64,000 nucleotides of DNA from a virus. Taxonomy: Duplodnaviria; Caudoviricetes. The stretch's first letter is position 1, and the number at the start of each line of letters is the position of its first letter. Below are positions 23,547 through 59,894 of this stretch, piece by piece. The position numbers and the translations under genes are program-made. Where the stretch lies: the IMG/VR virus record IMGVR_UViG_3300033075_001021. One strand, written 5' to 3'. A model generated the notes under the pieces. It did no database searches and was not told the DNA's origin. It saw only the letters and a program-made list of their open reading frames with translations.

Positions 23547-23547
23547 C

Positions 23548-23999: not shown

Positions 24000-24056
24000 T
24001 AATTCTATTTTTATATAAATATGTGGCTTTTAACAAAAAGACAATTTAAAAGCTTA

Positions 24057-24133: not shown

Positions 24134-24156
24134 AATTTTATACCCCCACTAGCTTT

Positions 24157-24200
24157 AACGGTTTAAAAGACCGTTGCCTACACCAGTTTGCTACGAGGGC
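24157..24200 (-). pseudogene. 5' fragment of a split tRNA-Lys(TTT)
   Basis: Acceptor 5' strand, D arm and anticodon arm ACGGT CTTTTAA ACCGT; no T arm. Confidence 0.75.
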
Positions 24201-24376
24201 TTGTACATGACTTCCCCCAGCATCTCTGGTGAGAAGTCTTATCGTTTACGTTTACGTTTTATCATGTTATATTTAATCATACGTGAAATACAATTACTTT
24301 TAGCTACATCAGCCAAATATGCGTCTATTAATCTATAATCAATTTGTATATACATCTTTTTTAATTTTTAATTGTT

Positions 24377-24492
24377 GTGGGGGCGGCTGGAATTGCACCA
24401 ACGTTTTTCAAATTTACAGTTTGTTGATTAAATTTGTTTTTGCTGCAAACATTCTTAACCAGAATGTATTAGTCTAACATTTCAACACCCCC
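24377..24492 (-). tRNA. tRNA-Tyr(GTA)-like with insertion in the D region
   Basis: Acceptor, CAAA CTGTAAA TTTG arm and T-like arm; D arm replaced by a CAGCAA-motif insert. Confidence 0.5.
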
Positions 24493-24499
24493 ATATTTT

Positions 24500-24573
24500 G
24501 AGCCTCATTGGTTACTCGAAAACCATTCCCCTATTTACGAAACAGGTGCGTCACCATATACGCTTATGTGGCA
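24500..24573 (-). tRNA. tRNA-Thr(CGT)
   Basis: Cloverleaf, loop TTCGTAA. Confidence 0.75.
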
Positions 24574-24615
24574 TTTGCTAGGTTTTAATTTTCACCAGAC
24601 CTAACAACTGGCTGA

Positions 24616-24699
24616 GAGCCTTCGGCCAGATTCGAACTGGCGGGGGATTACTCCGCTCGCTTACAAGGCGAGTGCAATCGACCACTATGCGACGAAGGC
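24616..24699 (-). tRNA. tRNA-Thr(TGT) with long variable arm
   Basis: Loop CTTGTAA. Confidence 0.8.
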
Positions 24700-24761
24700 A
24701 TTTTGAATTTCTATGATACTTCTCCACACGGAAGTTCTATGAAATTCTAACAGTCTCATAC

Positions 24762-24852
24762 GGTGCAGATGGAGAGAATCGAACTCTCGTCCGCTGGTTG
24801 GAAGCCAGCTATAATATGTCGTTAATTCGACGAACCACTATACGACATCTGC
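24762..24852 (-). tRNA. tRNA-Gly(TCC) with extra D-loop hairpin
   Basis: Loop CTTCCAA; GTCG-AATTAA-CGAC in D loop. Confidence 0.75.
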
Positions 24853-24910
24853 ATTACAGGATGATTTTTTTTCCAATAAAAGTGGTTTAACTTTGCTGAA
24901 CTCATCCTTT

Positions 24911-24994
24911 GTGGGTCGTGAAGGACTCGAACCTCCGAAAGTCGAATGACGGGGAGGTTACAGCTCCCTGTGATTGCCGCTACACAAACGACCC
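24911..24994 (-). tRNA. tRNA-Tyr(GTA)
   Basis: Cloverleaf. Confidence 0.9.
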
Positions 24995-25148
24995 ATATGT
25001 TCATTTTTTCTCTAACATTTTCCAGAAATGAACAAAACTACATACTCACTCGTTTGATGCTTGTCGCCATACCGCAGTAGTCCAACGGTCAGCTGCTAGC
25101 CTCACAGCCTTAATCATCTCCAATAATCAGGCGCAAGCATCGCTATAT

Positions 25149-25232
25149 GTGGGTGAGGTCGGATTCGAACCAACCATCCATGCGGATTAAGTAATTTACA
25201 GTCACTCGCCTAACCAACTCGGCATCTCACCC
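25149..25232 (-). tRNA. tRNA-Tyr(GTA)
   Basis: Cloverleaf. Confidence 0.85.
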
Positions 25233-25310
25233 AATTTAACCCATTTAATCGTAAGGACTTAGTCTTCATCAAATCACTAGGGTTATCATGATTGATTACT
25301 TCCTTACTTT

Positions 25311-25385
25311 GTTACCCCAGAAGGATTCGAACCCTCACCCAGCCACGCTCAAAACGTAGGATGCTAACCGTTACACCACAGGGCA
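25311..25385 (-). tRNA. tRNA-Gln(TTG)
   Basis: Cloverleaf. Confidence 0.85.
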
Positions 25386-25492
25386 ATATAATTTTAACAT
25401 CAACATCGATTACCACAATTACGATGAACCTTCGGGCCAACCGCCCAATATTCTTTTTTTGCTACGTGGATAAAGAACTTTGATGTTGTAGC

Positions 25493-25567
25493 GTTGCGCT
25501 GAATGGAGTCGAACCATTGTCCTCTGCTTCAAAGGCAGTTATAATAAAGCCGTTATACGACAGCGCA
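25493..25567 (-). tRNA. tRNA-Gln(TTG)
   Basis: Cloverleaf. Confidence 0.85.
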
Positions 25568-25584
25568 ATATTTAAAGAACTTCA

Positions 25585-25657
25585 GTTGCCTCATTAGGAC
25601 TCGAACCCAAACTTAAGCGCTCAGAACGCCCAGTGCTTGCCATTACACCATGAAGCA
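25585..25657 (-). tRNA. tRNA-Gln(CTG)
   Basis: Cloverleaf. Confidence 0.85.
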
Positions 25658-25662
25658 ATATT

Positions 25663-25750
25663 GTCGGGGTGACAGGAATCGAACCTGCGGGGAGACTTGC
25701 TCACTCGGCTCCAAACCGAGACCGCTACCTGACTACGGGCCTACACCCCG
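25663..25750 (-). tRNA. tRNA-Pro(TGG) with long variable arm
   Basis: Loop TTTGGAG. Confidence 0.8.
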
Positions 25751-25814
25751 ATAATTTGAATTTCTACGATTCCTCCTCCTAACGGAAGTTCTATGAAATC
25801 CTAACAGTCTCCAC

Positions 25815-25889
25815 GGTAGGGTAGACAGGACTCGAACCTGCACCGTCTTCATCCCAAATGAAGTGACCTACCAATTGGTCAACTACCCT
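25815..25889 (-). tRNA. tRNA-Pro(TGG)
   Basis: Cloverleaf. Confidence 0.9.
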
Positions 25890-25895
25890 ATAAAT

Positions 25896-25930
25896 AAAAA
25901 ACCCCAGTCAAATTATGAACTGGGGTTTTT
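25896..25930 (-). terminator. attenuator terminator of the KYTQPG tRNA operon
   Basis: CCCCAGT-loop-ACTGGGG followed by T6. Confidence 0.85.
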
Positions 25931-25948
25931 GCTTATTCCTGATTATCT

Positions 25949-26053
25949 TTACACCAAATCGATGTCTTTTACAGTATATAACATACCCAGTCCATTAAGA
26001 GGTGTGCCCCCTTGTGGTTTTTGTTTCGGTTGATATGTCGTATACTTTTTCAT
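25949..26053 (-). CDS. leader peptide MKKYTTYQPKQKPQGGTPLNGLGMLYTVKDIDLV
   Basis: Codons 2-18 are all K/Y/T/Q/P/G, matching the downstream tRNAs. Confidence 0.9.
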   Translation of the reverse strand: MKKYTTYQPKQKPQGGTPLNGLGMLYTVKDIDLV

Positions 26054-26076
26054 GACTTTATTTGTTATTGTTGTTT

Positions 26077-26118
26077 ATAAATATGTACAAAGATACAAAA
26101 GTTTTTTGAAATGTCAAA
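26077..26118 (-). promoter_or_regulatory. tandem TAnnTTTG promoter plus TATTTAT motif
   Basis: TTTGACA..GTATCTTTG then TATTTAT. Confidence 0.8.
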
Positions 26119-26122
26119 TTTT

Positions 26123-26320
26123 TTATGAACTTTTTTTCTCTTTTTTTGTTTTTTCTTTTTTGTCAGCTTTTTCAGCTTCTGTTTTTTGTTTTTTGTTAAG
26201 GTCTCTTTCGTTTTGCTTCCACTCTGATTTTGGTGTGTATTTCCAGCCAGATTTCACTTTTGATTCTGCTTCAGTATCACTCAATCTCAGGTATTTACCA
26301 TCTTTAGAAACTGTTTTCAT
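26123..26320 (-). CDS. small basic hypothetical protein
   Basis: ORF behind promoter. Confidence 0.6.
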   Translation of the reverse strand: MKTVSKDGKYLRLSDTEAESKVKSGWKYTPKSEWKQNERDLNKKQKTEAEKADKKEKTKKEKKSS

Positions 26321-26372
26321 TTATTAATTATTTATGCAAATATACGAAGGGTTTTTCAATTTTCCAAATTTT

Positions 26373-26813
26373 TTATGAACTTTTTTTCTTCGCTTCTGAA
26401 ACCATCTCTTTTAAGTTGTTGATTTTATCACGTAACTTGATGGCAAGCTCGTAATCTTCATTGTCAACCGCCTCTTGAAGTTGCTCGTCTAATGTCTTCT
26501 TATTTTCTACGTTAGATTCACCAGCAAGAACATCGGTTACAACAATTTTTACAAATCTTCCGTTTGGTGTATCCCAAGTTAATTTTGTAAACCTAAGACC
26601 ATCTTCAATAATTTCTTCTGAACTGGTTGGTTCACCAAGATTGATACCTAGTTTATTGGCAATCATTTCTTCAGCATCCAAGGCCTCAGTTTCCTTAAAA
26701 CTTGATAGCGCCTCCATGAGTTTTTTTATTTCCTCATGTACTGGATTGGTGTATTTTCTTTCATTAGGTTGTTCGTTGAAAAAATCGTTGAACAAATCAT
26801 CAAAACTTTTCAT
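26373..26813 (-). CDS. UVR-domain protein
   Basis: QLQEAVDNEDYELAIKLRDKI. Confidence 0.75.
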   Translation of the reverse strand: MKSFDDLFNDFFNEQPNERKYTNPVHEEIKKLMEALSSFKETEALDAEEMIANKLGINLGEPTSSEEIIEDGLRFTKLTWDTPNGRFVKIVVTDVLAGESNVENKKTLDEQLQEAVDNEDYELAIKLRDKINNLKEMVSEAKKKSS

Positions 26814-27070
26814 TTTTGTTTGGTTTTTATTCGCTTGGTTATTTTCTTTGTTCTATTGGTAAACTCAGTTATTGGATTTATCTTATAGAAAAGAAAGAAT
26901 AATATAAAGAATAGGGCCGCAGCAGCATATAATATATGCATTGTAGTCCAGTAGTCTTTCGTTAATTGCGTCAATTTGTAGACAAGAAGGTCGTACCCAA
27001 ACGGGTTTAGAAAACTCGCTATCACTAGACACATGGTTCCTAGTTTTTTTCGTGTCGCTTCGGTCATCAC
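26810..27070 (-). CDS. small membrane protein
   Basis: Two hydrophobic segments. Confidence 0.6.
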   Translation of the reverse strand: MMTEATRKKLGTMCLVIASFLNPFGYDLLVYKLTQLTKDYWTTMHILYAAAALFFILFFLFYKINPITEFTNRTKKITKRIKTKQK

Positions 27071-27166
27071 AATCCATAGTTTTGGGTTTAATTACAACAA
27101 TAAGGAAATCTCCAATATTGTTCTTATGCTAGGTATAAGAAGGGACAATCAAGCCCCTTCTATACA

Positions 27167-27352
27167 TTACTTTACACTCTTTACTGAATCAGTAGCTACT
27201 GAATCCACTTTGGTGCTGTCAATTTGAATGCCAGTGGTGGTATCAGCTTTTAATTGTGCCGTACTGTCAGTTACACTGTCATTTTGTGTTGCTACGCTGT
27301 TGCAAGATGTCATTGCGACAACTAAGCAAATCGCAAAAATGGCTTTTTTCAT
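27167..27352 (-). CDS. putative lipoprotein (start MKKAIF)
   Basis: Signal peptide with lipobox-like MTSC. Confidence 0.6.
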   Translation of the reverse strand: MKKAIFAICLVVAMTSCNSVATQNDSVTDSTAQLKADTTTGIQIDSTKVDSVATDSVKSVK

Positions 27353-27516
27353 GTTCTTTCCTTTTTGTTTTTTTTGTTTGTTGTTATTATTATAAATATC
27401 TCCAGAATGCAAATATACGCCTTTTTTTCCCTTTCCATGATAATTATGCAAATATACTAATAAAAATCAAAACATGCAAATTTTTACATAAAAAAAGGGG
27501 CCATTTGGCCCCTTTT

Positions 27517-29436
27517 TTATGATTGAATTGTTACTGTCATTGTTCGTATTACTCCTTGACCATCCTTAGCTCGTATTGTATATGTTCTACCAGCAACCAA
27601 ATTACTAAAGGTTGCATTGGTTGAGAATATACTATTATCAATACTATATGATAATGGTGTTGTACCGTTTTTTGTTCTTACCGTTAACCCACTAATTACA
27701 AATGGGGATATTGGTTGTGTTAATGTCAATGTTGTAGATGTTCTAGCGCTATTTGCATCAATAACATGGAATGTATATGTTCCAGCGGTTAAACCACTAA
27801 AAACATTTCCTGTAACAAAGGTTACGTTATCTCTAGAGTATCTATATGGTGATGCACCACCCGAAGCATTAAGCGTTACGCTTGTTGTACCATTAATTGT
27901 TGTAATTTGTGAATAGTTAGCTGTAACAACAAGTTGTGCTACTTGAGAAATTGTAACAGATTTTGTTGCTGTTGACCCAGATGCGTCGGTTACCGTGAAT
28001 TCATGTGTTCCCGCTTGTCTTGAAAATGTTCCAGTACCACTATATGGTGGTACACCGCCAGATGCACCGACAGTTACTGTTGATAAACCGCCATTTATCA
28101 ATATTGGTGTGAAGCTTACACTAATATTCAACGGTTGTGGTATTGCTTGATTATATTCTATAATACCAATATCTGGATTTCCAACAATAGTATTACCATT
28201 TATGTCTTGTGTATAACCAACTGTTGTACCACTATTAATTAATATACTATTAACCGCTGGTGTAAAATCCCAATATAATGGGTTTGCATTTGTTGTGTCT
28301 TTCCAAATAACACTGGTTGTTATTGTTTCGGATGAGTGGGGGGTAAAATTCAACACACTACCACTACCTAACTTATAAACGTTGTTTTGGCTAACCAAAG
28401 CACCAGCTGTACCCCACTGCGCCCTACATACATCAATTGTACCGTATAATTGAACTACATTGTTTTTCAAAACTAAGCTTGATGCGGTTGTTGCTGAAGC
28501 TTTAAATGCAAAACAAGCACTTGATGATATACGATATGGCTCCGATTCGACAATGATATTATTATAAAATTGTAAATTTGTTACTGTTGTGGCAAATCCA
28601 CCAGAATTACTAACATATGATATTGACCCGTTATTAATACACTTATTATATGATAATATAGTATCTGTAACCGTATTGCCACCAGAACCACCAATTTCAA
28701 TAACACCATTACAATCTACAAATGTATTTTTGGTGATTAGGGTATTTTCAATTAACGGTACATCTGCATAGATATCTATAGCCCCACCATCAACACCATA
28801 GTCAAATGACTGAGCCCAGCAATCATGAAAATAGTTTTCACTGATTGTATTATTACTTGATGAAATTACAATCGGATTTGCGCCGTAATCATCATCATTT
28901 CCTGGAGGTGGTCCATCGTTTGTATTAACAACCATCCTAAGATTACCAATATCACACTTAGTCATAGTATTATAACCACTTACCCAATAAGCACCAACAC
29001 CAACCAATTCAATTTTACAATTGCTTATTGTATTATAGCTATTTATAGTACCATCAAATGTAAATGCTCTTTGAATTTTAGATTGGACTGTTCTATCTGT
29101 TGGGCTTATTGATGTATCTGTAATCCATAAGTTATCAAATATAATATAAGACCGATTATACATATAAAATAGGTGTGATATTTGCGCACCAGTACCTATA
29201 AACTTTGGTTTATTTCCTGAGCCATAAGAACCAAATTTTATTGGAGCTAATGCAGTACCAGATTTATTTACTGTTAATGTACCTGAAAATGTATCACCAC
29301 ACTTAAATAAAATTGAATCACCAGGTTGAAATGCTGACATTGAAGATTGAACCTGTGATAATGATTTCCACGGTGTTGATAATGAACCATTTGATGTTCC
29401 ACCAGTGTAGGATGAGCTTACGTAATAAGTTGCCAT
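27517..29436 (-). CDS. beta-helix repeat protein with SprB-like C-terminal repeats
   Basis: YYVSS..GSLSTPWKSL..PGDSILFKCG; GASGGVPPY and LTAGTYTFHVIDAN repeats. Confidence 0.75.
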   Translation of the reverse strand: MATYYVSSSYTGGTSNGSLSTPWKSLSQVQSSMSAFQPGDSILFKCGDTFSGTLTVNKSGTALAPIKFGSYGSGNKPKFIGTGAQISHLFYMYNRSYIIFDNLWITDTSISPTDRTVQSKIQRAFTFDGTINSYNTISNCKIELVGVGAYWVSGYNTMTKCDIGNLRMVVNTNDGPPPGNDDDYGANPIVISSSNNTISENYFHDCWAQSFDYGVDGGAIDIYADVPLIENTLITKNTFVDCNGVIEIGGSGGNTVTDTILSYNKCINNGSISYVSNSGGFATTVTNLQFYNNIIVESEPYRISSSACFAFKASATTASSLVLKNNVVQLYGTIDVCRAQWGTAGALVSQNNVYKLGSGSVLNFTPHSSETITTSVIWKDTTNANPLYWDFTPAVNSILINSGTTVGYTQDINGNTIVGNPDIGIIEYNQAIPQPLNISVSFTPILINGGLSTVTVGASGGVPPYSGTGTFSRQAGTHEFTVTDASGSTATKSVTISQVAQLVVTANYSQITTINGTTSVTLNASGGASPYRYSRDNVTFVTGNVFSGLTAGTYTFHVIDANSARTSTTLTLTQPISPFVISGLTVRTKNGTTPLSYSIDNSIFSTNATFSNLVAGRTYTIRAKDGQGVIRTMTVTIQS

Positions 29437-31180: not shown

Positions 31181-31387
31181 TCAAATGTCCAATTTTTTTT
31201 CGTCTTTTTTTGAAAAATTTTCATTAACTTGTTGATTACCACGCTGATGCCTAGGCTCATAAGGACATCTTAAACAGCCACTGCCGCAGCAATAACCACG
31301 ATTTAGGTGATATTCTTCTGTCATTACCACGTTTCCACCATCATAATAATAATCCAATCCTTCCTCAAATCTTTTTTTATCCTTCAT
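31181..31387 (-). CDS. DUF5522-like protein
   Basis: HLNRGYCCGSGCLRCPY. Confidence 0.75.
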   Translation of the reverse strand: MKDKKRFEEGLDYYYDGGNVVMTEEYHLNRGYCCGSGCLRCPYEPRHQRGNQQVNENFSKKDEKKLDI

Positions 31388-32027
31388 AGGTTTTTCCAGC
31401 TTGTTTTAATTCTTCCGCAAATTGATTTGGTAATCTGGCCCTAAGCCTTTTAAACCAATCGTTGGTCTTTATTTTACAAGAATAAATATTGTCAACACCT
31501 TTTTTGGTTTTGGCAACACCCTTGCAAATAACACCTTCGGATAAATTAAACTCATTGTTTTTAACCCTTTGAACAAATTCTATGTTCAAATTTCCTTCAT
31601 AGACAATTTTAGGAATACCTAAATGTCCAAAATCCCTGACAAATTGTTTTGGTTGAATAAAGCCTTTTTTGTATTGAGAGATATCAAAAAGTACGATATC
31701 AAATTCATCATTTCCAAACTCATGTTGTCCAAATGCTGATTTGGTCCCTAAAAGTTCAGCAAAACATACAAATGATAATGTGTTTCGATATTCCCTCGAC
31801 TTAAAAATTTCCGTTAAACCCTTTTCATATTTTTCTCTAAAGAGTTTTATTGCAAACCCAAATTGTTCATTTGATTCATCAATCATTACATTTCTTGAAC
31901 CAAACTTATAAAACCCTCTTTTGTGTGAATATTCAAACCTTAAGTTTGAACCATCCAATTTATCAAATGCTATAATGGGTAATCCCCAATAATCCCCGTA
32001 ATACGGTATACTCTCATAATGTTTCAT
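31377..32027 (-). CDS. RNA ligase-like nucleotidyltransferase
   Basis: KLDGSN, FAE, LFDI, EGVICK, KIK. Confidence 0.75.
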   Translation of the reverse strand: MKHYESIPYYGDYWGLPIIAFDKLDGSNLRFEYSHKRGFYKFGSRNVMIDESNEQFGFAIKLFREKYEKGLTEIFKSREYRNTLSFVCFAELLGTKSAFGQHEFGNDEFDIVLFDISQYKKGFIQPKQFVRDFGHLGIPKIVYEGNLNIEFVQRVKNNEFNLSEGVICKGVAKTKKGVDNIYSCKIKTNDWFKRLRARLPNQFAEELKQAGKTYEG

Positions 32028-32241
32028 ATAATCGCTTTAATACTTTTTGTTTTAATCTGTTATTAAAATCGGTTAAAAGCGATTCTGGGATTTTGATACC
32101 GTGTTTTTCAAACTCACCCAATATCTCTTGTTTTGTGAAGCAACCTTCAGCAATACCATCGGTCCATTGGTTGAGCCATAAACCCCAACTTTTTTTACCA
32201 ATGATTACACCCCTCGAAATGTTTGGGTGTTGAGATACCAA
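32014..32241 (-). CDS. hypothetical protein
   Basis: ORF in operon. Confidence 0.55.
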   Translation of the reverse strand: MVSQHPNISRGVIIGKKSWGLWLNQWTDGIAEGCFTKQEILGEFEKHGIKIPESLLTDFNNRLKQKVLKRLYETL

Positions 32242-32515
32242 CTTGTTGTTATTGAAAAATCCGTTATCGAATTGTCTGAAAGTGTATTTGCCATCGAACC
32301 CATCTGGGTCATATTCTACGACAACATCAACACCACAGAACGTTAGAATGCCGCTCCGATATGATTTTAAGAAGAACGTAAATATTTCATTGAAGTTATC
32401 AGAATACTTCCGTAACTTCCTGTCTTTTCTTGAACCAATGAGCGACTTGCGTTCTTCTATACGCCCATTGGTGTTAATGCGTCCAGCCTTTTCATGATAG
32501 TTTGTTTTTAATTTT

Positions 32516-32653
32516 GCGGACGTGAGGGGAATCGAACTTAATGACCTTATCGGTCAAACCCTGACTTTAGCGTGACAAGCTAATTGATTTTGTTGCTGAA
32601 TATAATCTTGACAGATTACTTTTTTTAACGTTATACCACTTAACTACACGTCC
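32516..32653 (-). tRNA. tRNA-Asp(GTC) with two insertions
   Basis: Acceptor, D and anticodon arms intact; ~45-nt insert after D arm and ~21-nt hairpin in T stem. Confidence 0.6.
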
Positions 32654-32762
32654 ATAAATCTATTATTATTTTTTGCTACTCTGCCCGTGTCGGAATCGAA
32701 CCGATACAGATGGAGATTCGCACTCCCTTTTCACTAATACCCTACTACCTTTCGGATAGATT

Positions 32763-32835
32763 GTATGATGTGTTGGACTTGAACCAACGTCCCCGCCCTG
32801 CACGGGCAGTATCCTAGTCCCCTAGACGAACATCA
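32763..32835 (-). tRNA. tRNA-Ala(TGC)-like, atypical loop CGTGCAG
   Basis: Cloverleaf, G33. Confidence 0.5.
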
Positions 32836-32928
32836 CTAACTACAACCTCACCATCGGCAAACAGATTGGTCGTAGAAAGGACTTTAGCTTGTATAAGGTT
32901 GCCGCCCTATATTTTGCATTACCTTTTT

Positions 32929-33004
32929 TGGTGGAGCGCTAGGAAATCGAATCCTACCACAGTGCTTGCAAAGCACCATCGCCAGCCTTGGTACATGGCA
33001 CCCC
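32929..33004 (-). tRNA. tRNA-Ala(TGC)
   Basis: Cloverleaf, G3-U70, CCA. Confidence 0.85.
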
Positions 33005-33013
33005 ATAAATTAA

Positions 33014-33087
33014 GTGGACCGTATCGGAGTCGAACCGATGACTCGACAGTGCAAATGTCGTGTGTTAGCCAGCTATACCAACAGCCC
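33014..33087 (-). tRNA. tRNA-Ala(TGC)
   Basis: Cloverleaf, G3-U70. Confidence 0.9.
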
Positions 33088-33162
33088 ATTACCAGATATT
33101 ACCAGATAATATAATAATGTCTTGATTATCAATATTATTTATCTGGAAATATTACCAGAAAA

Positions 33163-33234
33163 GCCGAGACTGGGGGGTTCGAACCCCGACCTTCACCGTG
33201 ACAAGGTGGTATGCAGCCATTACACCACAGCCTC
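33163..33234 (-). tRNA. tRNA-Asp(GTC)
   Basis: Cloverleaf, 4-bp T stem. Confidence 0.8.
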
Positions 33235-33293
33235 GAAAAAAACATGGCCCCTCATGTGACTAGCACGAAGTTTGGTTGTCATCCAGCCATTTA

Positions 33294-33377
33294 GTAGCCC
33301 CCGTGGGAATCGAACCCACTCCGACCTGACGGCCCCGACTTGAAAGGACGGTCACTCACCCAATTGTATTGAGGGCC
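33294..33377 (-). tRNA. tRNA-Glu(TTC) with long variable arm
   Basis: Loop CTTTCAA. Confidence 0.75.
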
Positions 33378-33385
33378 ATTCTGCT

Positions 33386-33473
33386 GTACCGCCGACGGGG
33401 GTCGAACCCGCACGTTCTTTTTCAGAACACCGCCTTGAAAGGGCGGCGACATAACCAATTAGTCGACAGCGGC
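33386..33473 (-). tRNA. tRNA-Glu(TTC) with long variable arm
   Basis: Variable arm GTTCT-GAAAA-AGAAC. Confidence 0.8.
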
Positions 33474-33479
33474 ATTTTT

Positions 33480-33553
33480 GTAGCCTCGCACGGATTCGAA
33501 CCGAAATTTCTGCCGTGAAAGGGCAGCGTCCTGACCAGTTAGACGACGAGGCC
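33480..33553 (-). tRNA. tRNA-Glu(TTC)
   Basis: Cloverleaf. Confidence 0.9.
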
Positions 33554-33555
33554 AT

Positions 33556-33915
33556 TTATTTTCCTTTATAACTACGAGCTTCTGTTAAAAACTTTTCATC
33601 ATCTCTATTGCTATGTTCAATATTATGGCAATTTGAACATATCAACTCGCATTTATCCAATTCTTTAATAATAATATCCCAAGCTCGATTTGCGACATTA
33701 CCAATTGTAAATTCTTTTTCTGCTGGATTCTTATGATGAAACTCCAAAGCAGATGGATGTTTATCATAACCACACCTATTACACTTTCCACCAAGGTATT
33801 CAATAGCTTTTAATTTTGTTCTATAACGTCTAATCTTAGTGTTACATGAATTACATCTAGTTCTATTTTTACCCTGTAATTGTTTAATAGGTTTATCACA
33901 TAATTTACAATTCAT
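33556..33915 (-). CDS. HNH endonuclease (tRNA-associated)
   Basis: CNRCGYDKHPSALEFHH..CSNCH; wedged between tRNA-Phe and tRNA-Glu. Confidence 0.85.
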   Translation of the reverse strand: MNCKLCDKPIKQLQGKNRTRCNSCNTKIRRYRTKLKAIEYLGGKCNRCGYDKHPSALEFHHKNPAEKEFTIGNVANRAWDIIIKELDKCELICSNCHNIEHSNRDDEKFLTEARSYKGK

Positions 33916-33990
33916 GTGGTACGAGTCGGAATCGAACCGACGTTGTCGTGGCTCTTCAGGCCACCGCTAAACCATCTCAGCTACCGCACC
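33916..33990 (-). tRNA. tRNA-Phe(GAA)
   Basis: Cloverleaf. Confidence 0.9.
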
Positions 33991-34055
33991 ATTTTGATAT
34001 GTTGGGGATATTGAAATCATATCCCCTTTTCTCGGCCCACATATCAAGGACACCT

Positions 34056-34129
34056 GTGGTACAGGTCGGGCTCGAACCGACGACCATTGCGCCTTCAACG
34101 CAACACTCTACCATCTGAGTTACTGCACC
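34056..34129 (-). tRNA. tRNA-Phe(GAA)
   Basis: Cloverleaf. Confidence 0.9.
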
Positions 34130-34190
34130 TTGTTTAGGAACTGGTTTTACAACCACGGCTTGTACTTCACCTACATTTCTGAATTCCCAA

Positions 34191-34262
34191 GCGGATGGTA
34201 CGGGAATTGAACCCGTGACCTTGGCGTGACAAGCCAATAGTTTACCACTAGCCTAACCATCC
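34191..34262 (-). tRNA. tRNA-Asp(GTC)
   Basis: Cloverleaf. Confidence 0.85.
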
Positions 34263-34360
34263 ATAACGGGATAATCATTATGTTTTGGACGAAACTTTTT
34301 AAGCTATCACATATCTCGATATCGTCTCTAATATCGACATTTTGATGTGCCACTATCCCA

Positions 34361-34448
34361 GCGGACCCTACGAGATTCGAACTCGCCTGTCAGATAAATC
34401 TGTTCTGGGTTGACAGCCCAGCGGCCACACCAAGCAGCCCCAGAGTCC
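34361..34448 (-). tRNA. tRNA-Asp(GTC) with long variable arm
   Basis: Variable arm CAGA-TTTA-TCTG. Confidence 0.8.
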
Positions 34449-34453
34449 ATAAC

Positions 34454-34483
34454 AAAAAACCCCTCGATTTGTGGTCGAGGGGC
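34454..34483 (-). terminator. attenuator terminator of the FEDA tRNA operon
   Basis: CCCCTCGA-loop-TCGAGGGG followed by T6. Confidence 0.85.
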
Positions 34484-34507
34484 TCAAATTATGTTTTAAG
34501 ATAAACG

Positions 34508-34594
34508 TTAATTTTGGGCAATACTCGACCTCTGTGACCAATCGGCCTCAGCTGCATCAAAGTTAAACTCAAATATGTTGTTAACGTTTCTCAT
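34508..34594 (-). CDS. leader peptide MRNVNNIFEFNFDAAEADWSQRSSIAQN
   Basis: Codons 8-18 FEFNFDAAEAD match the Phe/Glu/Asp/Ala tRNAs downstream. Confidence 0.85.
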   Translation of the reverse strand: MRNVNNIFEFNFDAAEADWSQRSSIAQN

Positions 34595-34627
34595 TGTTTT
34601 TATGTTTGTGGGTTTCCCCGTTAAGTA

Positions 34628-34669
34628 ATAAATATATGCAAATATACGAAAGATTTTCGAAAAAGCAAA
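34628..34669 (-). promoter_or_regulatory. tandem TAnnTTTG promoter plus TATTTAT motif
   Basis: Near-identical to 61528-61569 and 40144-40185. Confidence 0.8.
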
Positions 34670-34692
34670 TATTTTGTAAAGATTTTTTTTTA

Positions 34693-34766
34693 GCACGGGA
34701 AGATGTTAACGAAACACCGTCCTCAAGGCTCAACGCCTTGCGCTCTTCAACTGAGCTATTCCCGTA
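34693..34766 (-). tRNA. tRNA-like RNA (TTG loop with G33, aberrant T loop)
   Basis: Acceptor ACGGGAA/TTCCCGT, canonical D arm. Confidence 0.5.
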
Positions 34767-34769
34767 AAT

Positions 34770-35735
34770 TAAGACTGAGTACTTGGTCTTGGGAGAAGGA
34801 ATTTTTCACACAGATTTCTCTGGTAGTACACACCTACATTTCTGTTGGTATCCTCCATACAGACTGATTATAGGTTCAGCAACCACTACGTACTGCTATA
34901 TAGTTTACTCCTTTCACTCTCAGCCCCTTGGAAGGGTGAACAATCTCCCGACTGCTACTGATTAGCTACTTGTTTCAGCTCTCCACATTTCCTTGAGGTA
35001 CTCTGTGGGCCAACATATTGTCTTTCGACGCAGCTGGATAACTGTATTGTCACAGCACGTGCCCAATGCTTTCTCTTTTTTATAATTTGCATTAACAAAG
35101 TTGCAATGCCAAATAGTCATTTAGAAGGTTGTGATTGGGCTCTGAACCGTGCCACCTTTTGAGTAGTTTAGGTTCAAACAACCTCCTGTTTTCAGCCGCC
35201 AAGCTTACTCACTTTACTGAGTCTATCATCCCACCATTTCTGCCAGAGCAGCACCACCTGTTCACGTGGTAGACACAATCAATGAGTAGAAACCCATCGA
35301 TTGTTGGTTCGTCATATGGGATGACAATAACCTTTCATCAATAACTGCTGAAAATTGGCGGTCCTTAGCAGTTAAAGCAACATCAATTTGTCGGTGTTAC
35401 CACCCAAGTCAGGCCGACCAAGCCCGACCCACCCTACTTTCACGTCTGCCCGACGATACTCCATAAGATGGTATAATGCTGTGTTTCGTGTGAACAGACT
35501 TTCATCTGCGCCAAACATTCTTAGGCGATTGTTTGACTTTTCCGACTTATGAATTCATCGGTTATTCTAACGAGGAGAACACCCCCGAACCAAATTAGTA
35601 ACTGGTCAAGCCAGCTTATTCACACGGACCGTGCGTATTTCAACGCTGAAGGTTTTGGATACCCGTGCTTTTGTGTGGCTGTCTTAAGAGTGCCTCTCAT
35701 ACAACAGATTCGCGAATGGCATTTAACCCACACAT
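34770..35735 (-). ncRNA. candidate ~950-nt structured ncRNA
   Basis: Own TAnnTTTG promoter near 35748, no minus-strand ORF, GC-richer, many hairpins. Confidence 0.55.
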
Positions 35736-35914
35736 TTGTTTGGATTGCAAAGATACGAATAACTTTTTAATCCACCAAATTTTTTAAGAACTTTTTTTGA
35801 GACATCGGAGTCATTTGGCCTAACTCACCATGTTATTGTAATCGCTCGGTGTCTCAATTAGAATGCAAATATACAACAGATTTTTCAATTTTCCAAATTT
35901 TCTGTCAACTTTTT

Positions 35915-36742
35915 TTAATTAAAGTGATTTTCTAGTGATTCAATCAATTTAATCATATTACACTCATAGAATCCAGCAGAATTGATGTTATTTACTTCGA
36001 CAATCTTTAATTCATCGTCAGCTAAACAAACATCTAATACAAATGCTTCGGCTGGTTGATATTTGTCAACCATGCTTTGTGCAAAGTCAACGAAATAAGA
36101 TTCATCATCGTAATTAGCGTAGATAACTCTATTACCAATCTTATATCTACTAGCTGTAACCACATTTCCACCAACAACCCAGCATCTAACTTCTTGTTGA
36201 ATGTTTTTAAGCGGAGAAACCAAAATTTGAGTTTCTTCTGTAATAACATTAACCGTATCGTGGTCGTTACAAGTTTTTGTGTAATCAGCCCAAGCCGCTT
36301 TAGAAAACACTTGACCAGAAAATACTTTGCTATCTTTTGTTGGTCTAGCAAAGAAAAATTCATTATCAAAAGGTATAGCGTCTGTAAAATTGATTACTTG
36401 ACCATCGCCATTTAACATGTTTTCAAACCCATATTGTGGTGCGTAAACATTGTAGTCATGATTGTCATTCAACATACTGCCTGGTTTCCAACCACGTTTA
36501 GCCGCTGCCGCAGCCATGGCCACGGCACCAAAACAAAAAATGTTTGTTTTATCGGTTTGATAAACCTTAGGGTTAAAATCTGGAATCTTATCAGCTTCTT
36601 CAGAATCATACCATTCATAGATATCACCAGCAAATGGAATATACTTTACAATATCGTATTCAAACTTGAAACGATTCATTGTATCTAAAAGCGTCTGATA
36701 ATGATGCTCTTTAAATAAGTTTTCTTGTATTACGTAAAACAT
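35915..36742 (-). CDS. ATP-grasp domain protein (DUF4343-like)
   Basis: FFARP..K.FSG, EVRCWVV, VLDV, IVEVN..SAGFY. Confidence 0.8.
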   Translation of the reverse strand: MFYVIQENLFKEHHYQTLLDTMNRFKFEYDIVKYIPFAGDIYEWYDSEEADKIPDFNPKVYQTDKTNIFCFGAVAMAAAAAKRGWKPGSMLNDNHDYNVYAPQYGFENMLNGDGQVINFTDAIPFDNEFFFARPTKDSKVFSGQVFSKAAWADYTKTCNDHDTVNVITEETQILVSPLKNIQQEVRCWVVGGNVVTASRYKIGNRVIYANYDDESYFVDFAQSMVDKYQPAEAFVLDVCLADDELKIVEVNNINSAGFYECNMIKLIESLENHFN

Positions 36743-36983
36743 TATTTTTTAGCGTTTCGTAGAGATTGATTTTTTTCATGAAAAAAATCCACCCACATTT
36801 TAACAAAAGCTGATGCTTTTTTATTGATATCTTCTTCCGTTCTAGCAGAAAAATAAACATCGATTTCTGGCATATAACATGAGAACATTTCATCACTTTC
36901 TGGGTTATCTGTCATAACCGTAAAGTCAACTGATACTGTTCGTTTTTGATTGTATATTTCGTTTTGTTTCATAAAACTGTTTT

Positions 36984-37073
36984 GTGAGGATGGTCGGACT
37001 CGAACCGACACGCTACTATTATTTCGCCCCAGATTCTAAGTCTGGTGTGTGCTGCCAATTTCACCACATCCCC
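36984..37073 (-). tRNA. tRNA-Leu(TAG)
   Basis: Type II cloverleaf. Confidence 0.9.
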
Positions 37074-37076
37074 ATA

Positions 37077-37508
37077 TTATTTTTTACGCCTAAATGTTGG
37101 TGTTTGTGAATGACAATTCGGGCAAAGAACTCTAAGGTTTTCTAACCTATTATCATTATTATCACCATTAATATGGTCAATTTCTAATGTGATTGGTTTT
37201 CCATTCCAAATCCCATTATTTGAACATTCAGCGCATTCATTTTTTAAAACTCCATCATTAATAAGTCTTATTCTTAAGTAACTGCTATTAAACTTAACTT
37301 TATTATTAATAATATCATCTAGACTAACTTTTGGTTTTCTCAACCCTTTACCAGCCATATTCCCATCATACTCAATACCCATTAATTTTAAATAATTGTT
37401 AAGTGTATCTTGTTTACATTTAAGTTGTTTAATAATGTAAGCTTTAGATTGTTTTTCAACAATCCATTTTAGTATTTCTTCTTTTCTTTCTATTATATCT
37501 TTTCTCAT
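37077..37508 (-). CDS. HNH endonuclease (start MRKDI)
   Basis: LEIDHINGDNNDNRLENLRVLCPNCHSQT. Confidence 0.9.
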   Translation of the reverse strand: MRKDIIERKEEILKWIVEKQSKAYIIKQLKCKQDTLNNYLKLMGIEYDGNMAGKGLRKPKVSLDDIINNKVKFNSSYLRIRLINDGVLKNECAECSNNGIWNGKPITLEIDHINGDNNDNRLENLRVLCPNCHSQTPTFRRKK

Positions 37509-37563
37509 ACTTATAAATATAAGGTAGATACATAAAAAGTAAATAGACATGTATACCAATTTT

Positions 37564-37646
37564 GTGACCCTAGTAGGACTCGAACCTACACGCCTTACGG
37601 CAGCTGCTTCTTAGACAGCTCTGTCTACCAATTCCAGCATAGAGCC
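37564..37646 (-). tRNA. tRNA-Leu(AAG)
   Basis: Loop CTAAGAA. Confidence 0.85.
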
Positions 37647-37745
37647 ATTTGTTGTCTTTCCAACCGTCACGATTTTTTTGCGATTATTTGAGATATTGTT
37701 TATCCCATTATCATCTCTTTTCACACTCCATATCGCTTTGAGTTT

Positions 37746-37830
37746 GTGACCATGACAGGCTTCGAACCTGCACATCCTTAAGGACCTGCGGGTCTAAACC
37801 GCAGCTGTATTCCAGTTCCAGCACATGGCC
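37746..37830 (-). tRNA. tRNA-Leu(TAG)
   Basis: Loop TTTAGAC. Confidence 0.85.
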
Positions 37831-37874
37831 ATTACAAGATGATTTTGAAAGGTTTGAACTTTCTCGTTTCTATT

Positions 37875-38201
37875 TTAGGTAGATTCTTTATCCTGAAATT
37901 TGCTGAAATCATCTTTTGTGGCCGTAAAAGGACTCGAACCTTCACTCCTTTCGGAACCTGATTTTGAGTCAGGCGTGTCTACCAATTCCACCATACGGCC
38001 ATTTATTATTTCAAATATCTTTCGTGGACTAATTTGTATCGCTTTTTGTGATATTTCATCCACTCTTTTTTTTGGTATATCATAATGATTTTTATGAAAC
38101 CAACACTTTTTAATGTTAAGGTCTTTAGCCATCTGATGAAGGTTCTCTATTGAATAAGGAACGCACACCAAATGTCTCATATTATCATAATAATATACCA
38201 T
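37875..38201 (-). CDS. DUF4031-like protein reading into tRNA-Leu(CAA)
   Basis: HLVC..LHQMAKDLNIKKCWFH..HYDI. Confidence 0.55.
   Translation of the reverse strand: MVYYYDNMRHLVCVPYSIENLHQMAKDLNIKKCWFHKNHYDIPKKRVDEISQKAIQISPRKIFEIINGRMVELVDTPDSKSGSERSEGSSPFTATKDDFSKFQDKEST
37918..38000 (-). tRNA. tRNA-Leu(CAA)
   Basis: Cloverleaf. Confidence 0.9.
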
Positions 38202-38202
38202 T

Positions 38203-38286
38203 GTGACCTTGACAGGCTTCGAACCTGCATGTCCTACGGACCAGTGGGTTTAAGCCACCGCTGTATTCCAGTTCCAGCACAAGGCC
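38203..38286 (-). tRNA. tRNA-Leu(TAA)
   Basis: Cloverleaf. Confidence 0.85.
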
Positions 38287-38371
38287 ATTTGAGAGACCCA
38301 AAAACTACACCATCGAAACAGGGACCTGTACCCCATAACATTCTCATTCTTGGTTTTACCTCTCTAGGTTT

Positions 38372-38459
38372 TGTAGGGCGAGAGGGAGTCGAACCCTCAC
38401 GGTCCTTTCGGACCACAGGATTTTAAGTCCTGCGTGTCTACCAGTTCCACCACCGCCCC
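38372..38459 (-). tRNA. tRNA-Leu(TAA)
   Basis: Cloverleaf. Confidence 0.9.
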
Positions 38460-38463
38460 ATTT

Positions 38464-38551
38464 GTAGAGATGGAAGGATTTGCACCCTCACGCTTATTCC
38501 TAAGCACAAGGCTTCTCGGCCTTGCGTGTCTACTAATTTCACCACATCTCA
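38464..38551 (-). tRNA. tRNA-Leu(GAG), C33
   Basis: Loop CCGAGAA. Confidence 0.75.
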
Positions 38552-38553
38552 AC

Positions 38554-38775
38554 TTATTTCCACTTAGTTTTCCTATTATATTTCCAAGTTTGGTATTCTC
38601 TTGCTTTATAATATTGCAACTGTTTATTCGGATTTTTATATCCTCTTCTATATCGTGGATAGAAGCTGATTCCTTCGTCCCAATATATAGGATAAAGAAT
38701 GTTTATCCAAATAATGTGATATTCTATACCACTAGTTGCTTTGCTAAGCTTTGCTCTGTTTCTATTTTTTGACAT
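38554..38775 (-). CDS. small basic hypothetical protein
   Basis: ORF behind promoter near 38821. Confidence 0.6.
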   Translation of the reverse strand: MSKNRNRAKLSKATSGIEYHIIWINILYPIYWDEGISFYPRYRRGYKNPNKQLQYYKAREYQTWKYNRKTKWK

Positions 38776-38842
38776 ATTAGGTTATTTACCTAATACATGT
38801 CAAGTCTTTTTTTCATATTGCAAATATACAGAACTTTTTTTA

Positions 38843-39139
38843 TTAATCCAAATATTTTACAAATTCGCTTTCAATTCTTTCAACGCCACTGCTATCCAAG
38901 GCATCAATATAGCCCAGTGGTGACGTACCAGCAGCAAGCATACAGATATTTTTAAATCCGTTTTCTTTAGTTATCTGGCTATCAGCTTCTGTAATAACAT
39001 CATCCATTTTAGCATATACCGATTCTAATCTTTTGGTTGCTGGATTAACGTTTCCCCACGAAACATGCGGGTCTCCGATTTCTTCAACCATAAATTTTCT
39101 TCCACTTTTTAGGTGGACTGTGTAACGTCTGTTGCTCAT
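38843..39139 (-). CDS. hypothetical protein (start MSNRR)
   Basis: ORF between tRNAs. Confidence 0.65.
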   Translation of the reverse strand: MSNRRYTVHLKSGRKFMVEEIGDPHVSWGNVNPATKRLESVYAKMDDVITEADSQITKENGFKNICMLAAGTSPLGYIDALDSSGVERIESEFVKYLD

Positions 39140-39152
39140 AAAATATTTTTTA

Positions 39153-39225
39153 GTGGCCCCTAACAGAATTGAACTGTTGACCTCTCCCATGTCAAAGGAG
39201 CGCTATCCCACTTAGCTAAAGGGCC
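39153..39225 (-). tRNA. tRNA-Val(GAC)
   Basis: Cloverleaf. Confidence 0.85.
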
Positions 39226-39230
39226 AATTT

Positions 39231-39316
39231 GTGGGTCCACTCGGACTCGAACCGAGATTAACTGCTCGTCTCCACCTTGTAAGGATGGGATGTTTATCCT
39301 GTTACACCATGGACCC
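39231..39316 (-). tRNA. tRNA-Val(TAC) with long variable region
   Basis: Loop CTTACAA. Confidence 0.8.
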
Positions 39317-39320
39317 ATTT

Positions 39321-39396
39321 GTAGGAGTGGACGGAGTCGAACCGCCGACCCTCTGCTTGTAAGGCAGATGCTCTAAACCAGCTGAGCTACACTCCC
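39321..39396 (-). tRNA. tRNA-Val(TAC)
   Basis: Cloverleaf. Confidence 0.9.
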
Positions 39397-39400
39397 ATGT

Positions 39401-39473
39401 GAAGCGGTGACAAGATTCAAACTTGTGTTTCAGAGGTTGCAGCTCTGCGCCTAAATCACTCGGCCACACCGCC
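39401..39473 (-). tRNA. tRNA-Cys(GCA)
   Basis: Cloverleaf, U73. Confidence 0.9.
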
Positions 39474-39698
39474 TTATACTATCCAACGACTCAATATTTG
39501 TGCTGGCATCTTTGATAAGAAATCAGCTTCACCCATATCAGAAATTGGAACTTCAAAGAAGACACCCATTGTTTGACTAATTGGGTTCCCTTCGGTACTA
39601 ATTCTTGTATTATAATAAGCAACCCCTTTTCTAATATACAATAATTCCGCTTCTGGTTTTTGCTTATAAAGCAATTTTTTGATTTCGTTCTTTTCCAT
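39474..39698 (-). CDS. hypothetical protein
   Basis: ORF between tRNAs. Confidence 0.65.
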   Translation of the reverse strand: MEKNEIKKLLYKQKPEAELLYIRKGVAYYNTRISTEGNPISQTMGVFFEVPISDMGEADFLSKMPAQILSRWIV

Positions 39699-39893
39699 AA
39701 TCTTTTTTAATTAAAACCTTTGTTGGTCTCCAATCACCGATGTCAATTGTAACCTCAATAAAATCATCGTTTTCTATATTATTTACATTAACATCTTCAA
39801 TAGCATCATTTGATAGCATTGGTGATTTATTAACCCCTTTTCGATTAAATAAATTTTTAATGTTAAGTAACTTTTTCATAAAACATGTGTTTT

Positions 39894-39981
39894 GAACCCA
39901 TGACAGGATTTGAACCTGTGGTGAGGGATAACCCTTACAGTTTTGCAGACTGTCATCTTCGGCCACTCGAATCACATGGGC
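39894..39981 (-). tRNA. tRNA-Cys(GCA) with long variable arm
   Basis: Variable arm AGGG-TTAT-CCCT. Confidence 0.8.
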
Positions 39982-39985
39982 AAAT

Positions 39986-40017
39986 AAAAAACCCCAGCTA
40001 TACTCTAGACTGGGGCT
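39986..40017 (-). terminator. attenuator terminator of the LVC tRNA operon
   Basis: GCCCCAG-loop-CTGGGGT followed by T-tract. Confidence 0.85.
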
Positions 40018-40041
40018 TAATGTTATTATTAGATTTCAAAT

Positions 40042-40122
40042 TTATAACATAGGAATCCCAGTCGTGTTAGATAACACTAGCACACACAATACAAGGAGCA
40101 ATATGTTTGATAAATTTTTCAT
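40042..40122 (-). CDS. leader peptide MKNLSNILLLVLCVLVLSNTTGIPML
   Basis: Codons 8-17 are all L/V/C, matching the downstream tRNAs. Confidence 0.9.
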   Translation of the reverse strand: MKNLSNILLLVLCVLVLSNTTGIPML

Positions 40123-40143
40123 CTTAGTTTTTTGTTGTTGTTT

Positions 40144-40185
40144 ATAAATATATGCAAATATACGAAAGAATTTTTAAAAAGCAAA
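40144..40185 (-). promoter_or_regulatory. tandem TAnnTTTG promoter plus TATTTAT motif
   Basis: TTTGC..TTCGTATATTTGCATATATTTAT. Confidence 0.8.
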
Positions 40186-40203
40186 TTTTTTTGAAACTTT
40201 TTT

Positions 40204-40701
40204 TTAAAGATTTTTTACGTACTCAACGGTGATATCATTTTTCTTAATAAATCCTCTTAATTGTTCAAATGCTAATAAACTTGGTGGTTCACTCATTTCA
40301 TCGTCATTTTGGGGTAGATTATGAGGTATTGATACTTCTATTTTAATCAAGGATTTACTGATATCGACACCCATTGGGTATTTGAGTAAACTTACCCTTT
40401 CTTCAGATTCGTCTTCTTTACCCCTACCATAACCAGCCCTAACATCAGCATATGATTGTAATCTATATCTATTTGATAATGAATTACCATCAATAGTAAT
40501 TCTAACCTGCATTGGTATAGAATAAGACTTAAACCATTTATTTCTAGTAAAAGAAACATATGGTTGAATACTAGATGTTAATTTAAAATCATTTGCTATT
40601 ATTCCCATTAAACCACGATAGTTTGTAAAGTGATATAAAGGGCCAATATTTTTACCCTCTAATAACCCCTCTCTCAATAATTGTTTAATTAAATCTTTCA
40701 T
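40204..40701 (-). CDS. hypothetical protein (possible ADP-ribosyltransferase-like fold)
   Basis: LYHFT, VSFTR, ESEER; N-terminal LREGLLE motif. Confidence 0.5.
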   Translation of the reverse strand: MKDLIKQLLREGLLEGKNIGPLYHFTNYRGLMGIIANDFKLTSSIQPYVSFTRNKWFKSYSIPMQVRITIDGNSLSNRYRLQSYADVRAGYGRGKEDESEERVSLLKYPMGVDISKSLIKIEVSIPHNLPQNDDEMSEPPSLLAFEQLRGFIKKNDITVEYVKNL

Positions 40702-41273
40702 TATATATCAATCATTTTAAGTTTTCCCATTTTATCGTATGCAACATTTCCAATATGAAGGTCCAACGGCCTTCCAAGGTCTTTTTCAATTATTGGTGCA
40801 ACGGCTCTTAAAAATTTTGCCCATCTATAAAGAATAGATAATATAAATGGATTATCACCATTATCCGCTGCATCAATAACAGTATTAAAACACTCCCCCT
40901 CAAAAAAATTATTTATTGTAATAAAACCATTACTGCAAGATATTTCACCAGATAGGTTCAATAAAAATCTATCTATTTCATTTAATTCATATGCGGCCTC
41001 TGCTGTTTTTAATTTTTCAATCTCAACAACTGTTAATGTTGGGTCTTTTCTAAATGGAAAAGTACGATAGACTTTAGGAAAGTATTTTGGATTCTCTTGG
41101 AATGTACTTAGCCACTCATGCACCGTATCTTCATCACCAATCTTAAAAAGTCTGTCTGGATATTTGTTTGATGCATAAACCTTATGATAAGCGCCCTTAC
41201 CAAATTCTTTTTTTGGTTTAATTGACATCTCTTCTAATGATTCCCTAAGATATGTCCTAATCCATTGTTTCAT
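40701..41273 (-). CDS. kinase-like protein
   Basis: GKGAYHKVY, DLHIGNV, KMIDI. Confidence 0.7.
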   Translation of the reverse strand: MKQWIRTYLRESLEEMSIKPKKEFGKGAYHKVYASNKYPDRLFKIGDEDTVHEWLSTFQENPKYFPKVYRTFPFRKDPTLTVVEIEKLKTAEAAYELNEIDRFLLNLSGEISCSNGFITINNFFEGECFNTVIDAADNGDNPFILSILYRWAKFLRAVAPIIEKDLGRPLDLHIGNVAYDKMGKLKMIDI

Positions 41274-59888: not shown

Positions 59889-59894
59889 AATATT

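Follow-up and report, generated by a model that had tools for sequence, protein, structure and literature searches.

Several leader-peptide attenuators are known from enterobacteria, among them trpL, hisL, pheL and leuL, together with the multivalent leaders of ilvGMEDA, which respond to Ile, Leu and Val, and of thr, which respond to Thr and Ile. In E. coli, an attenuator with the leader pheM controls pheST and thereby phenylalanyl-tRNA synthetase. Genes for tRNAs are textbook examples of promoter-controlled genes, governed by growth rate and the stringent response, and the tRNAs carried by phages have usually been viewed as a passive supplement to codon usage. It has been reported that a pheR mutant, in which one tRNA-Phe gene is missing, de-represses pheA 6-7 fold, and a response of attenuators to the dosage of tRNA genes, in addition to amino acids, is thus established for pheA and pheR (PMC3082878).

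The locus described here lies on the minus strand of a 64-kb stretch of viral DNA, the whole of which is referred to as the window, and consists of a short leader rich in Phe, Glu, Asp and Ala codons followed by a block of tRNA genes for the same amino acids (the F/E/D/A, or FEDA, unit). Judged from its sequence, it is probably a leader-peptide attenuator in mechanistic terms, the leaders nearest to it being those of ilv and thr, which are multivalent, with pheST similar in spirit. With attenuators of the ilv and thr type, the mechanism of which has been set out for pheL (PMC3082878), it shares a promoter, a short ORF with a run of regulatory codons, an intrinsic terminator and a strand near the ORF that can pair with the 5' arm of the terminator, and in both cases a single leader would sense more than one amino acid. 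Unlike these attenuators, the phage units precede tRNA genes and not genes for biosynthetic enzymes, and their product would relieve the stall directly; each phage leader would sense three to seven amino acids, with four leaders covering all 20, and the units are phage-borne and carry a promoter of the Bacteroidota type. The presumed targets therefore lie beyond the classical scope of such control, which comprises biosynthesis, transport and synthetase genes. In pheST, likewise, the gene controlled by a leader rich in given codons belongs to the translation apparatus and serves the same codons, but it encodes a synthetase and not a tRNA, one amino acid is sensed, and the system is cellular and not viral. 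A further resemblance exists to T-box riboswitches, in which a terminator and an antiterminator also compete, the outcome is set by the state of a specific tRNA and translation-related genes are controlled; the T-box, however, binds uncharged tRNA directly and has no ORF, whereas the phage design would depend on a ribosome reading codons. No match to the T-box was obtained with Rfam, and the Rfam leader families (His_leader, Trp_leader and others) gave no match at gathering score, the best leader matches reaching 15 bits (E 1.8-3.5) and being driven by the terminator. In a literature search with most subscription journals outside its reach, no description of leader-peptide control of tRNA genes and no report of feedback control of phage tRNA arrays were found.

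The FEDA unit begins with a Bacteroidota-type promoter at 34639-34669 on the minus strand, where a pattern scan for the consensus TTTG-N19-TAnnTTTG finds TTTG-N19-TAtaTTTG. This is followed by an A-rich 5' UTR (34595-34632) with a small GGGG-AAA-CCC hairpin at 34619-34610, in which inspection of the sequence reveals no Shine-Dalgarno sequence; the same UTR is found in the unit at 61494 and in the FEDA and W/S/H/I/M/N/R (WSHIMNR) leaders of relatives. Conceptual translation confirms the leader proposed in the preliminary description, an ORF of 28 codons plus TAA (34508-34594) running from the ATG at 34594 to the stop at 34510-34508, in which codons 8-18 (34541-34573) read FEFNFDAAEAD, with 10 of 11 residues being Phe, Glu, Asp or Ala and a single Asn codon (AAC) as the exception. 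After an A/U-rich spacer of 25 nt from the stop codon, there is an intrinsic terminator at 34454-34482, predicted by folding to have an 8-bp GC-rich stem, a 7-nt loop and a U6 tract (CCCCUCGA / 7-nt loop / UCGAGGGG / U6) and a hairpin energy of -13.3 kcal/mol. A candidate antiterminator strand, GGUCGAG, is located in codons 22-24 (34524-34530) and is the exact complement of CUCGACC at 34479-34473, which comprises the last five bases of the terminator 5' arm and the first two of the loop, as had been claimed for the corresponding DNA letters.

The first gene that would be regulated (34361-34448) is tRNA-like, with a GUC (Asp) anticodon and a long variable arm, as detected by ARAGORN and by an Infernal alignment (E 6e-6). 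Described beforehand as starting a few nucleotides past the U-tract, it begins at 34448, exactly 5 nt downstream. The rest of the block (32763-34262, minus strand; ARAGORN and Rfam) contains Asp, Phe, Phe, Glu, Glu, Asp, Ala and Ala tRNA genes, with a 119-aa ORF (33556-33915, minus strand) between the Phe and Glu genes, and a pattern scan of the block detects neither a strict promoter nor a strong terminator. The U-tract is separated from the tRNA by only 5 nt in this unit, and by 1-26 nt in most leaders of three classes, which leaves no room for an independent tRNA promoter.

The window holds 56 tRNA genes according to ARAGORN, all of them on the minus strand and arranged in four blocks, each headed by the same design and preceded by a shared promoter header. 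The WSHIMNR unit (61335-61569, ORF 61494-61396) has a control run with 18 of 19 residues in its set and is followed by Trp, Ser, His, Ile, Met, Asn and Arg tRNA genes; in the C/V/L (CVL) unit (39986-40185, ORF 40122-40042) all 10 control residues fall in the set, ahead of Cys, Val and Leu tRNA genes, and in the P/Q/Y/T/K/G unit (25896-26118, ORF 26053-25949) all 17 do, ahead of Pro, Gln, Tyr, Thr, Lys and Gly tRNA genes. Together with the FEDA unit, which starts at the ATG at 34594, these sets partition all 20 amino acids (7+3+4+6). When every six-frame ORF of the window was taken as the null (22,000-28,000 windows in each test), no equal to any of the four control runs appeared among the more than 22,000 other ORF windows; for the FEDA run, none of 27,688 other 11-residue windows from all ORFs reached 10 of 11, against a background frequency of 0.22 for the four residues. 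Approximately ten strong minus-strand terminators occur between 20 and 63 kb, and four of these fall precisely at the junction of a leader and its first tRNA gene.

Relatives of these units have been recovered in several ways. A search with the shared header returned 57 IMG/VR loci and 50 metagenome loci, while a scan independent of the header, for the succession of short ORF, terminator and tRNA, yielded 52 distinct leaders on about 50 phage contigs, most of them in the same four classes; a scan of IMG/VR with a FEDA-specific UTR pattern added one new locus only. The leader ORF, on whose conservation in relatives the preliminary description had staked the attenuator reading, stays open in all homologues. 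The nearest GenBank records are uncultured phages of 460-735 kb, related contigs reach 362 kb, and the phage DNA has been found in public runs from freshwater, riverine, digester and sludge metagenomes. Among the genomes of 185,579 species, the header-plus-start pattern has a single match, on a MAG contig of 20 kb; this contig has a W/S/H... leader of its own ahead of tRNAs, and the design therefore belongs to phages.

Comparison of the FEDA leaders indicates which property of the ORF has been conserved. In the seven distinct leaders (that of the window with its near-twin L033, L003, L058, L061, L075, L043/L073 and L048), 81 of 87 cells in control columns 8-18 are Phe, Glu, Asp or Ala, compared with the background of 0.22. 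In the variable columns chemically unlike residues replace one another within the set, as in the change from Glu to Phe (GAG to TTT), which takes three base changes; with such radical swaps confined to these four residues, selection would therefore act on which tRNA is called and not on the peptide. Synonymous codons in the control runs exhibit a trend only towards broader sampling, with 36 distinct codons against 32.5 expected (P = 0.09).

The same correspondence extends to the other classes. Across 26 non-redundant pairs of leader and operon, the fraction of residues 2-20 that belong to the leader's own tRNA set is 0.68, compared with 0.29 when pairs are permuted (maximum 0.50), and none of 20,000 permutations reaches the observed value, a test that relatedness within classes inflates. 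For this reason the differently grouped arrays have been taken as the decisive cases, and control-codon composition follows the downstream tRNA set in at least eight different groupings. One contig (L011) has two leaders, each with a composition matching its own operon, and in another pair (L034/L074) an N/S/Q/F/P/H/I/V leader precedes Gln, Pro, Phe, Asn, Val, Ile, Ser and His tRNA genes. The distant GenBank phage LR745206 (635 kb) has 61 tRNAs in four clusters, in which an H/K/F/S/W-rich leader stands before His-Phe-Trp-Lys-Arg-Ser tRNAs, an N/L/T/V/I-rich leader before Asn-Arg-Leu-Val-Ile-Thr tRNAs and a P/Q/D-rich leader before Pro-Asp-Gln tRNAs; its fourth cluster (L124, 364870-367155; Met, Glu, Tyr, Ile, Gly) lacks any codon-matched leader or terminator upstream that could be recognised.

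These comparisons bear on two simpler explanations. It could be argued that the short ORFs encode small functional peptides, that the hairpins are leaky terminators or insulators and that the tRNAs arise by constitutive read-through, with no sensing involved. The conservation of the ORFs and the resemblance of the CVL leader to a hydrophobic helix would fit such an account, which we nonetheless consider very improbable, given that composition is conserved and peptide sequence is not, with Phe, Glu, Asp and Ala interchanging freely, that composition matches the tRNA set in unrelated groupings, and that an unregulated terminator so close before the first tRNA (1-26 nt in most leaders of three classes) would be wasteful. 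The other explanation is chance, whereby an AT-rich intergenic region happens to hold an F/E/D/A-rich ORF beside a terminator. A 7-bp complementarity alone could indeed arise in this way, but the probability of this account as a whole is negligible in view of the four units in one window and the dozens of homologues, and it has been effectively refuted by the uniqueness of the run among the 27,688 windows, the homologues, the 20,000 permutations and the groupings in LR745206. The proposal that the FEDA leader is an attenuator is thus supported by comparative tests, in which ORF, terminator and complementarity are conserved, composition tracks the tRNA set and residues swap within the set.

The complementarity between GGUCGAG and CUCGACC is not significant when taken alone (shuffle P ~0.08), and with antiterminators of 6-10 bp, shuffle tests on single leaders are mostly non-significant (P 0.00-0.86); support has accordingly been sought in conserved position and covariation and not in the significance of single leaders. 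The segment that best complements the terminator 5' arm and loop lies, in nearly every leader of every class, at codons 19-27, just past the control run, and it changes along with the arm, as in the pairs GACUGGG/CCCAGUC, GGCUGGG/CCCAGCC, GAUGGG/CCCAUC, AGGUCA/UGACCU and GGUCGAG/CUCGACC. In the alignment of 14 C/V/L sequences the helix is 88.4% paired, compared with 20-52% for a slid partner, its covariation is reached by 1 of 500 shuffles and there are two compensatory pairs; the 14 sequences of the P/Q/Y... class give 88.3%, 22-53% for a slid partner, 12 of 500 shuffles and again two compensatory pairs. For the eight FEDA sequences, the corresponding values are 85.7%, 12-39% and 10 of 500, with one compensatory pair that represents one event between two clades. 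The helix is weak or interrupted in a few homologues (L017, L084 and L040/L047), and in LR745206 three unrelated terminators each have their own matching segment of 6-8 bp, at codon 21, 27 or 23. Overall, support for this short helix is moderate.

Folding has been used to examine how such a switch might operate, with kinetic-window folds restricted to the RNA that exists before the terminator 3' arm is made. With a ribosome fixed over the control codons, each of the four leaders of the window folds so that the 5' arm is paired with codons 21-26. The antiterminator also forms in these folds without any ribosome, for which reason the untranslated default would be read-through. A convincing 1:2 pause hairpin was not found in folds of the leaders, the strand-2 region pairing upstream in full-length folds, and with the antiterminator forming in the ribosome-free state, the logic of these leaders would differ from that of trp-type attenuators. 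The distance from stop codon to terminator is constant, at 22-35 nt, which means that a terminating ribosome could not reach the terminator and would stand on or between the antiterminator strands. In the two longer leaders, those of the W/S/H... and P/Q/Y... units, the folds indicate that a ribosome positioned at the stop codon fails by itself to mask the antiterminator strand, and timing or trailing ribosomes must therefore be invoked. Folding also predicts the terminator hairpin to be much more stable than the antiterminator, as a consequence of which the switch would have to be kinetic. In classical attenuators, the terminator is likewise stronger than the antiterminator.

Taking these features together, we infer that the leader ORF is translated, that the hairpin functions as a terminator and that the switch has a particular direction and physiological trigger, and we consider it likely, from the sequence comparisons, that the FEDA leader is a ribosome-mediated transcription attenuator exerting negative feedback on tRNA supply. 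Transcription would initiate from the promoter (34669-34639), with translation of the 28-codon leader under way as RNA polymerase moves on. With Phe, Glu, Asp and Ala codons read fast, the ribosome would pass codons 19-26 and arrive at the stop, 25 nt before the terminator, so that GGUCGAG would be occluded or separated from its partner; the terminator hairpin would then form, and transcription would end 5 nt before the first tRNA gene. Scarcity of any one of the four aminoacyl-tRNAs would instead make the ribosome lag in codons 8-18, leaving GGUCGAG free to pair with CUCGACC in the 5' arm and loop; the hairpin could then not nucleate, and the polymerase would read into the Asp, Phe, Glu and Ala tRNA genes. 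Since the stall would be caused by a lack of exactly those tRNAs that the block encodes, the feedback on tRNA supply would be direct and negative. The three sister units would do likewise for the other 16 amino acids.

A different possibility is that the device is real and codon-matched while its signal or output is something other than simple feedback on tRNA supply, for example a general sensor of translation capacity or amino acid starvation, a timing device that opens the tRNA operons as host translation declines, or an effect on RNA processing or stability rather than on termination. Several observations are compatible with this: a ribosome senses aminoacyl-tRNA and not tRNA itself, and starvation would open the gate too; the default in folds without translation is read-through; and codons 2-7 (Arg/Lys, Asn and Ile), which the leaders share, lie outside the FEDA and CVL sets. 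That codons 2-7 and one control codon (Asn) of the FEDA leader fall outside its own set also counts against the mechanism set out above. A general sensor, however, needs no class-specific codon sets that track the tRNAs of each operon, and control of termination is indicated by the combination of strong intrinsic terminators and antiterminator strands that match them. This alternative is consequently regarded as unlikely, although less so than the peptide and chance explanations, and feedback on tRNA supply is retained as the preferred reading.

The header of the FEDA unit raises a separate question of descent. The preliminary description had noted a near-copy of its promoter and UTR at 61489-61558, and the resemblance is in fact more extensive, with 90% identity over 110 nt (61479-61588) and 96% over the 81 nt that end at codon 2, between the FEDA and WSHIMNR headers of this genome; an exact 34-nt core is present twice, where chance would lead one to expect none. 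It had also been proposed that the header was duplicated and then retuned to each tRNA set. The four classes are paralogous, in keeping with the first part of this proposal, but a recent duplication is disfavoured, each class being old and shared with many phages. The FEDA header of the window is only 81-84% identical to FEDA headers elsewhere, as opposed to 96% to the WSHIMNR header of the same genome, which indicates that the near-identity is younger than the classes. On these comparisons, recent exchange or conversion of promoter and UTR between units, or very strong constraint, would explain it better than recent duplication and retuning.

Additional aspects of the region concern the tRNA genes and their surroundings. 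Nine tRNA genes, with specificities that normally have short variable arms, are 84-91 nt long: Asp (34361-34448), Glu (33386-33473), Lys (23409-23495), Cys (39894-39981), Val (39231-39316), His (60042-60132), Asn (59158-59245), Ile (59806-59889) and Thr (24616-24699). A 5-bp stem in the long variable arm has been confirmed for the Asp gene, the arms of the other eight being deduced from gene length alone, and each overlong gene lies close to one of normal length with the same anticodon. ARAGORN also called a tRNA with a two-base 'anticodon' at 38464-38551 (Rfam tRNA, 33.5 bits) and missed one at 22094-22164 that was found by Rfam. In the W/S/H/I/M/N/R class the gap from terminator to first tRNA is 165-234 nt, compared with 1-26 nt in most leaders of the other classes (a few up to 78 nt), and for the 165-nt gap before tRNA-Trp in the window (61170-61334) there was no Rfam match and no tRNA call. 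In the close relative L033, a tRNA-Met gene (1135-1210) is located within the 5' UTR, between promoter and FEDA leader, and in L040 and L047 a lone tRNA-Met is placed under a copy of the header, with no leader ORF. It may be that tRNA-Met is exempt from control by the attenuators.

A large non-coding RNA resembling GOLLD (34772-35779, minus strand) runs straight into a lone tRNA-Gln gene (34765-34693), immediately ahead of the FEDA promoter. The RNA matches Rfam RF02032 at 34772-35186 with 74 bits (E 5e-19), below the gathering score; the region has no ORF longer than 73 aa and has promoters at 35779 and 35897, and identical contigs of about 800 nt over 34781-35590 occur in two metatranscriptome runs from different studies. 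None of the contigs from four RNA or RNA-labelled public runs compared with 32000-41000 extends over the leaders. As in T5 and in huge-phage tRNA clusters generally, the arrays are large and interspersed with homing endonucleases and small ORFs, and HNH homing-endonuclease genes at 37077-37559 and 22314-22724 are inserted between tRNA genes of blocks headed by the leaders. The tRNA region of phage T5 was considered as a precedent and set aside, its annotated small CDSs being neither codon-matched nor trailed by terminators.

The arrays are also surrounded by genes for tRNA maintenance, encoding a CCA-adding enzyme (62784-63992), a T4 Rnl1-type RNA ligase (51081-52262), two further RNA ligases (48428-49495 and 31377-32027) and an R2K ATP-grasp protein (35915-36742), with Rnl1- and Rnl2-type enzymes both represented among the ligases and HNH endonucleases also near the tRNA blocks. 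Together they make up an island for supplying and repairing tRNAs, consistent with a function in re-establishing decoding capacity after the loss of host tRNAs. One of the ligase genes, at 31377-32027, follows the FEDA tRNAs on their downstream side, and because neither a strict promoter nor a strong terminator is found between them, it may be co-transcribed under the FEDA attenuator.

A broader interpretation, which is advanced tentatively and to which we would give somewhat less than even chances, is that the four units form a complete sensor of decoding capacity for all 20 amino acids. It would detect, set by set, the loss of host tRNAs through host shut-off or anticodon-nuclease defences and transcribe replacement tRNAs along with the co-located repair enzymes, constituting a tRNA homeostat run by the virus independently of its host and widespread among giant phages of several host phyla. 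Phage tRNA arrays could then be studied as a counter to tRNA depletion and tRNA-targeting defences, a view that becomes testable in that specific anticodon nucleases should switch on specific units. The leaders would also represent natural, modular, codon-specific sensors for three to seven amino acids each, and for all 20 together. If the proposed mechanism is true, it would provide the first example of tRNA transcription being regulated directly by tRNA supply, by way of the decoding ribosome, and giant phages would be seen to monitor and repair the decoding capacity of the cell on demand.
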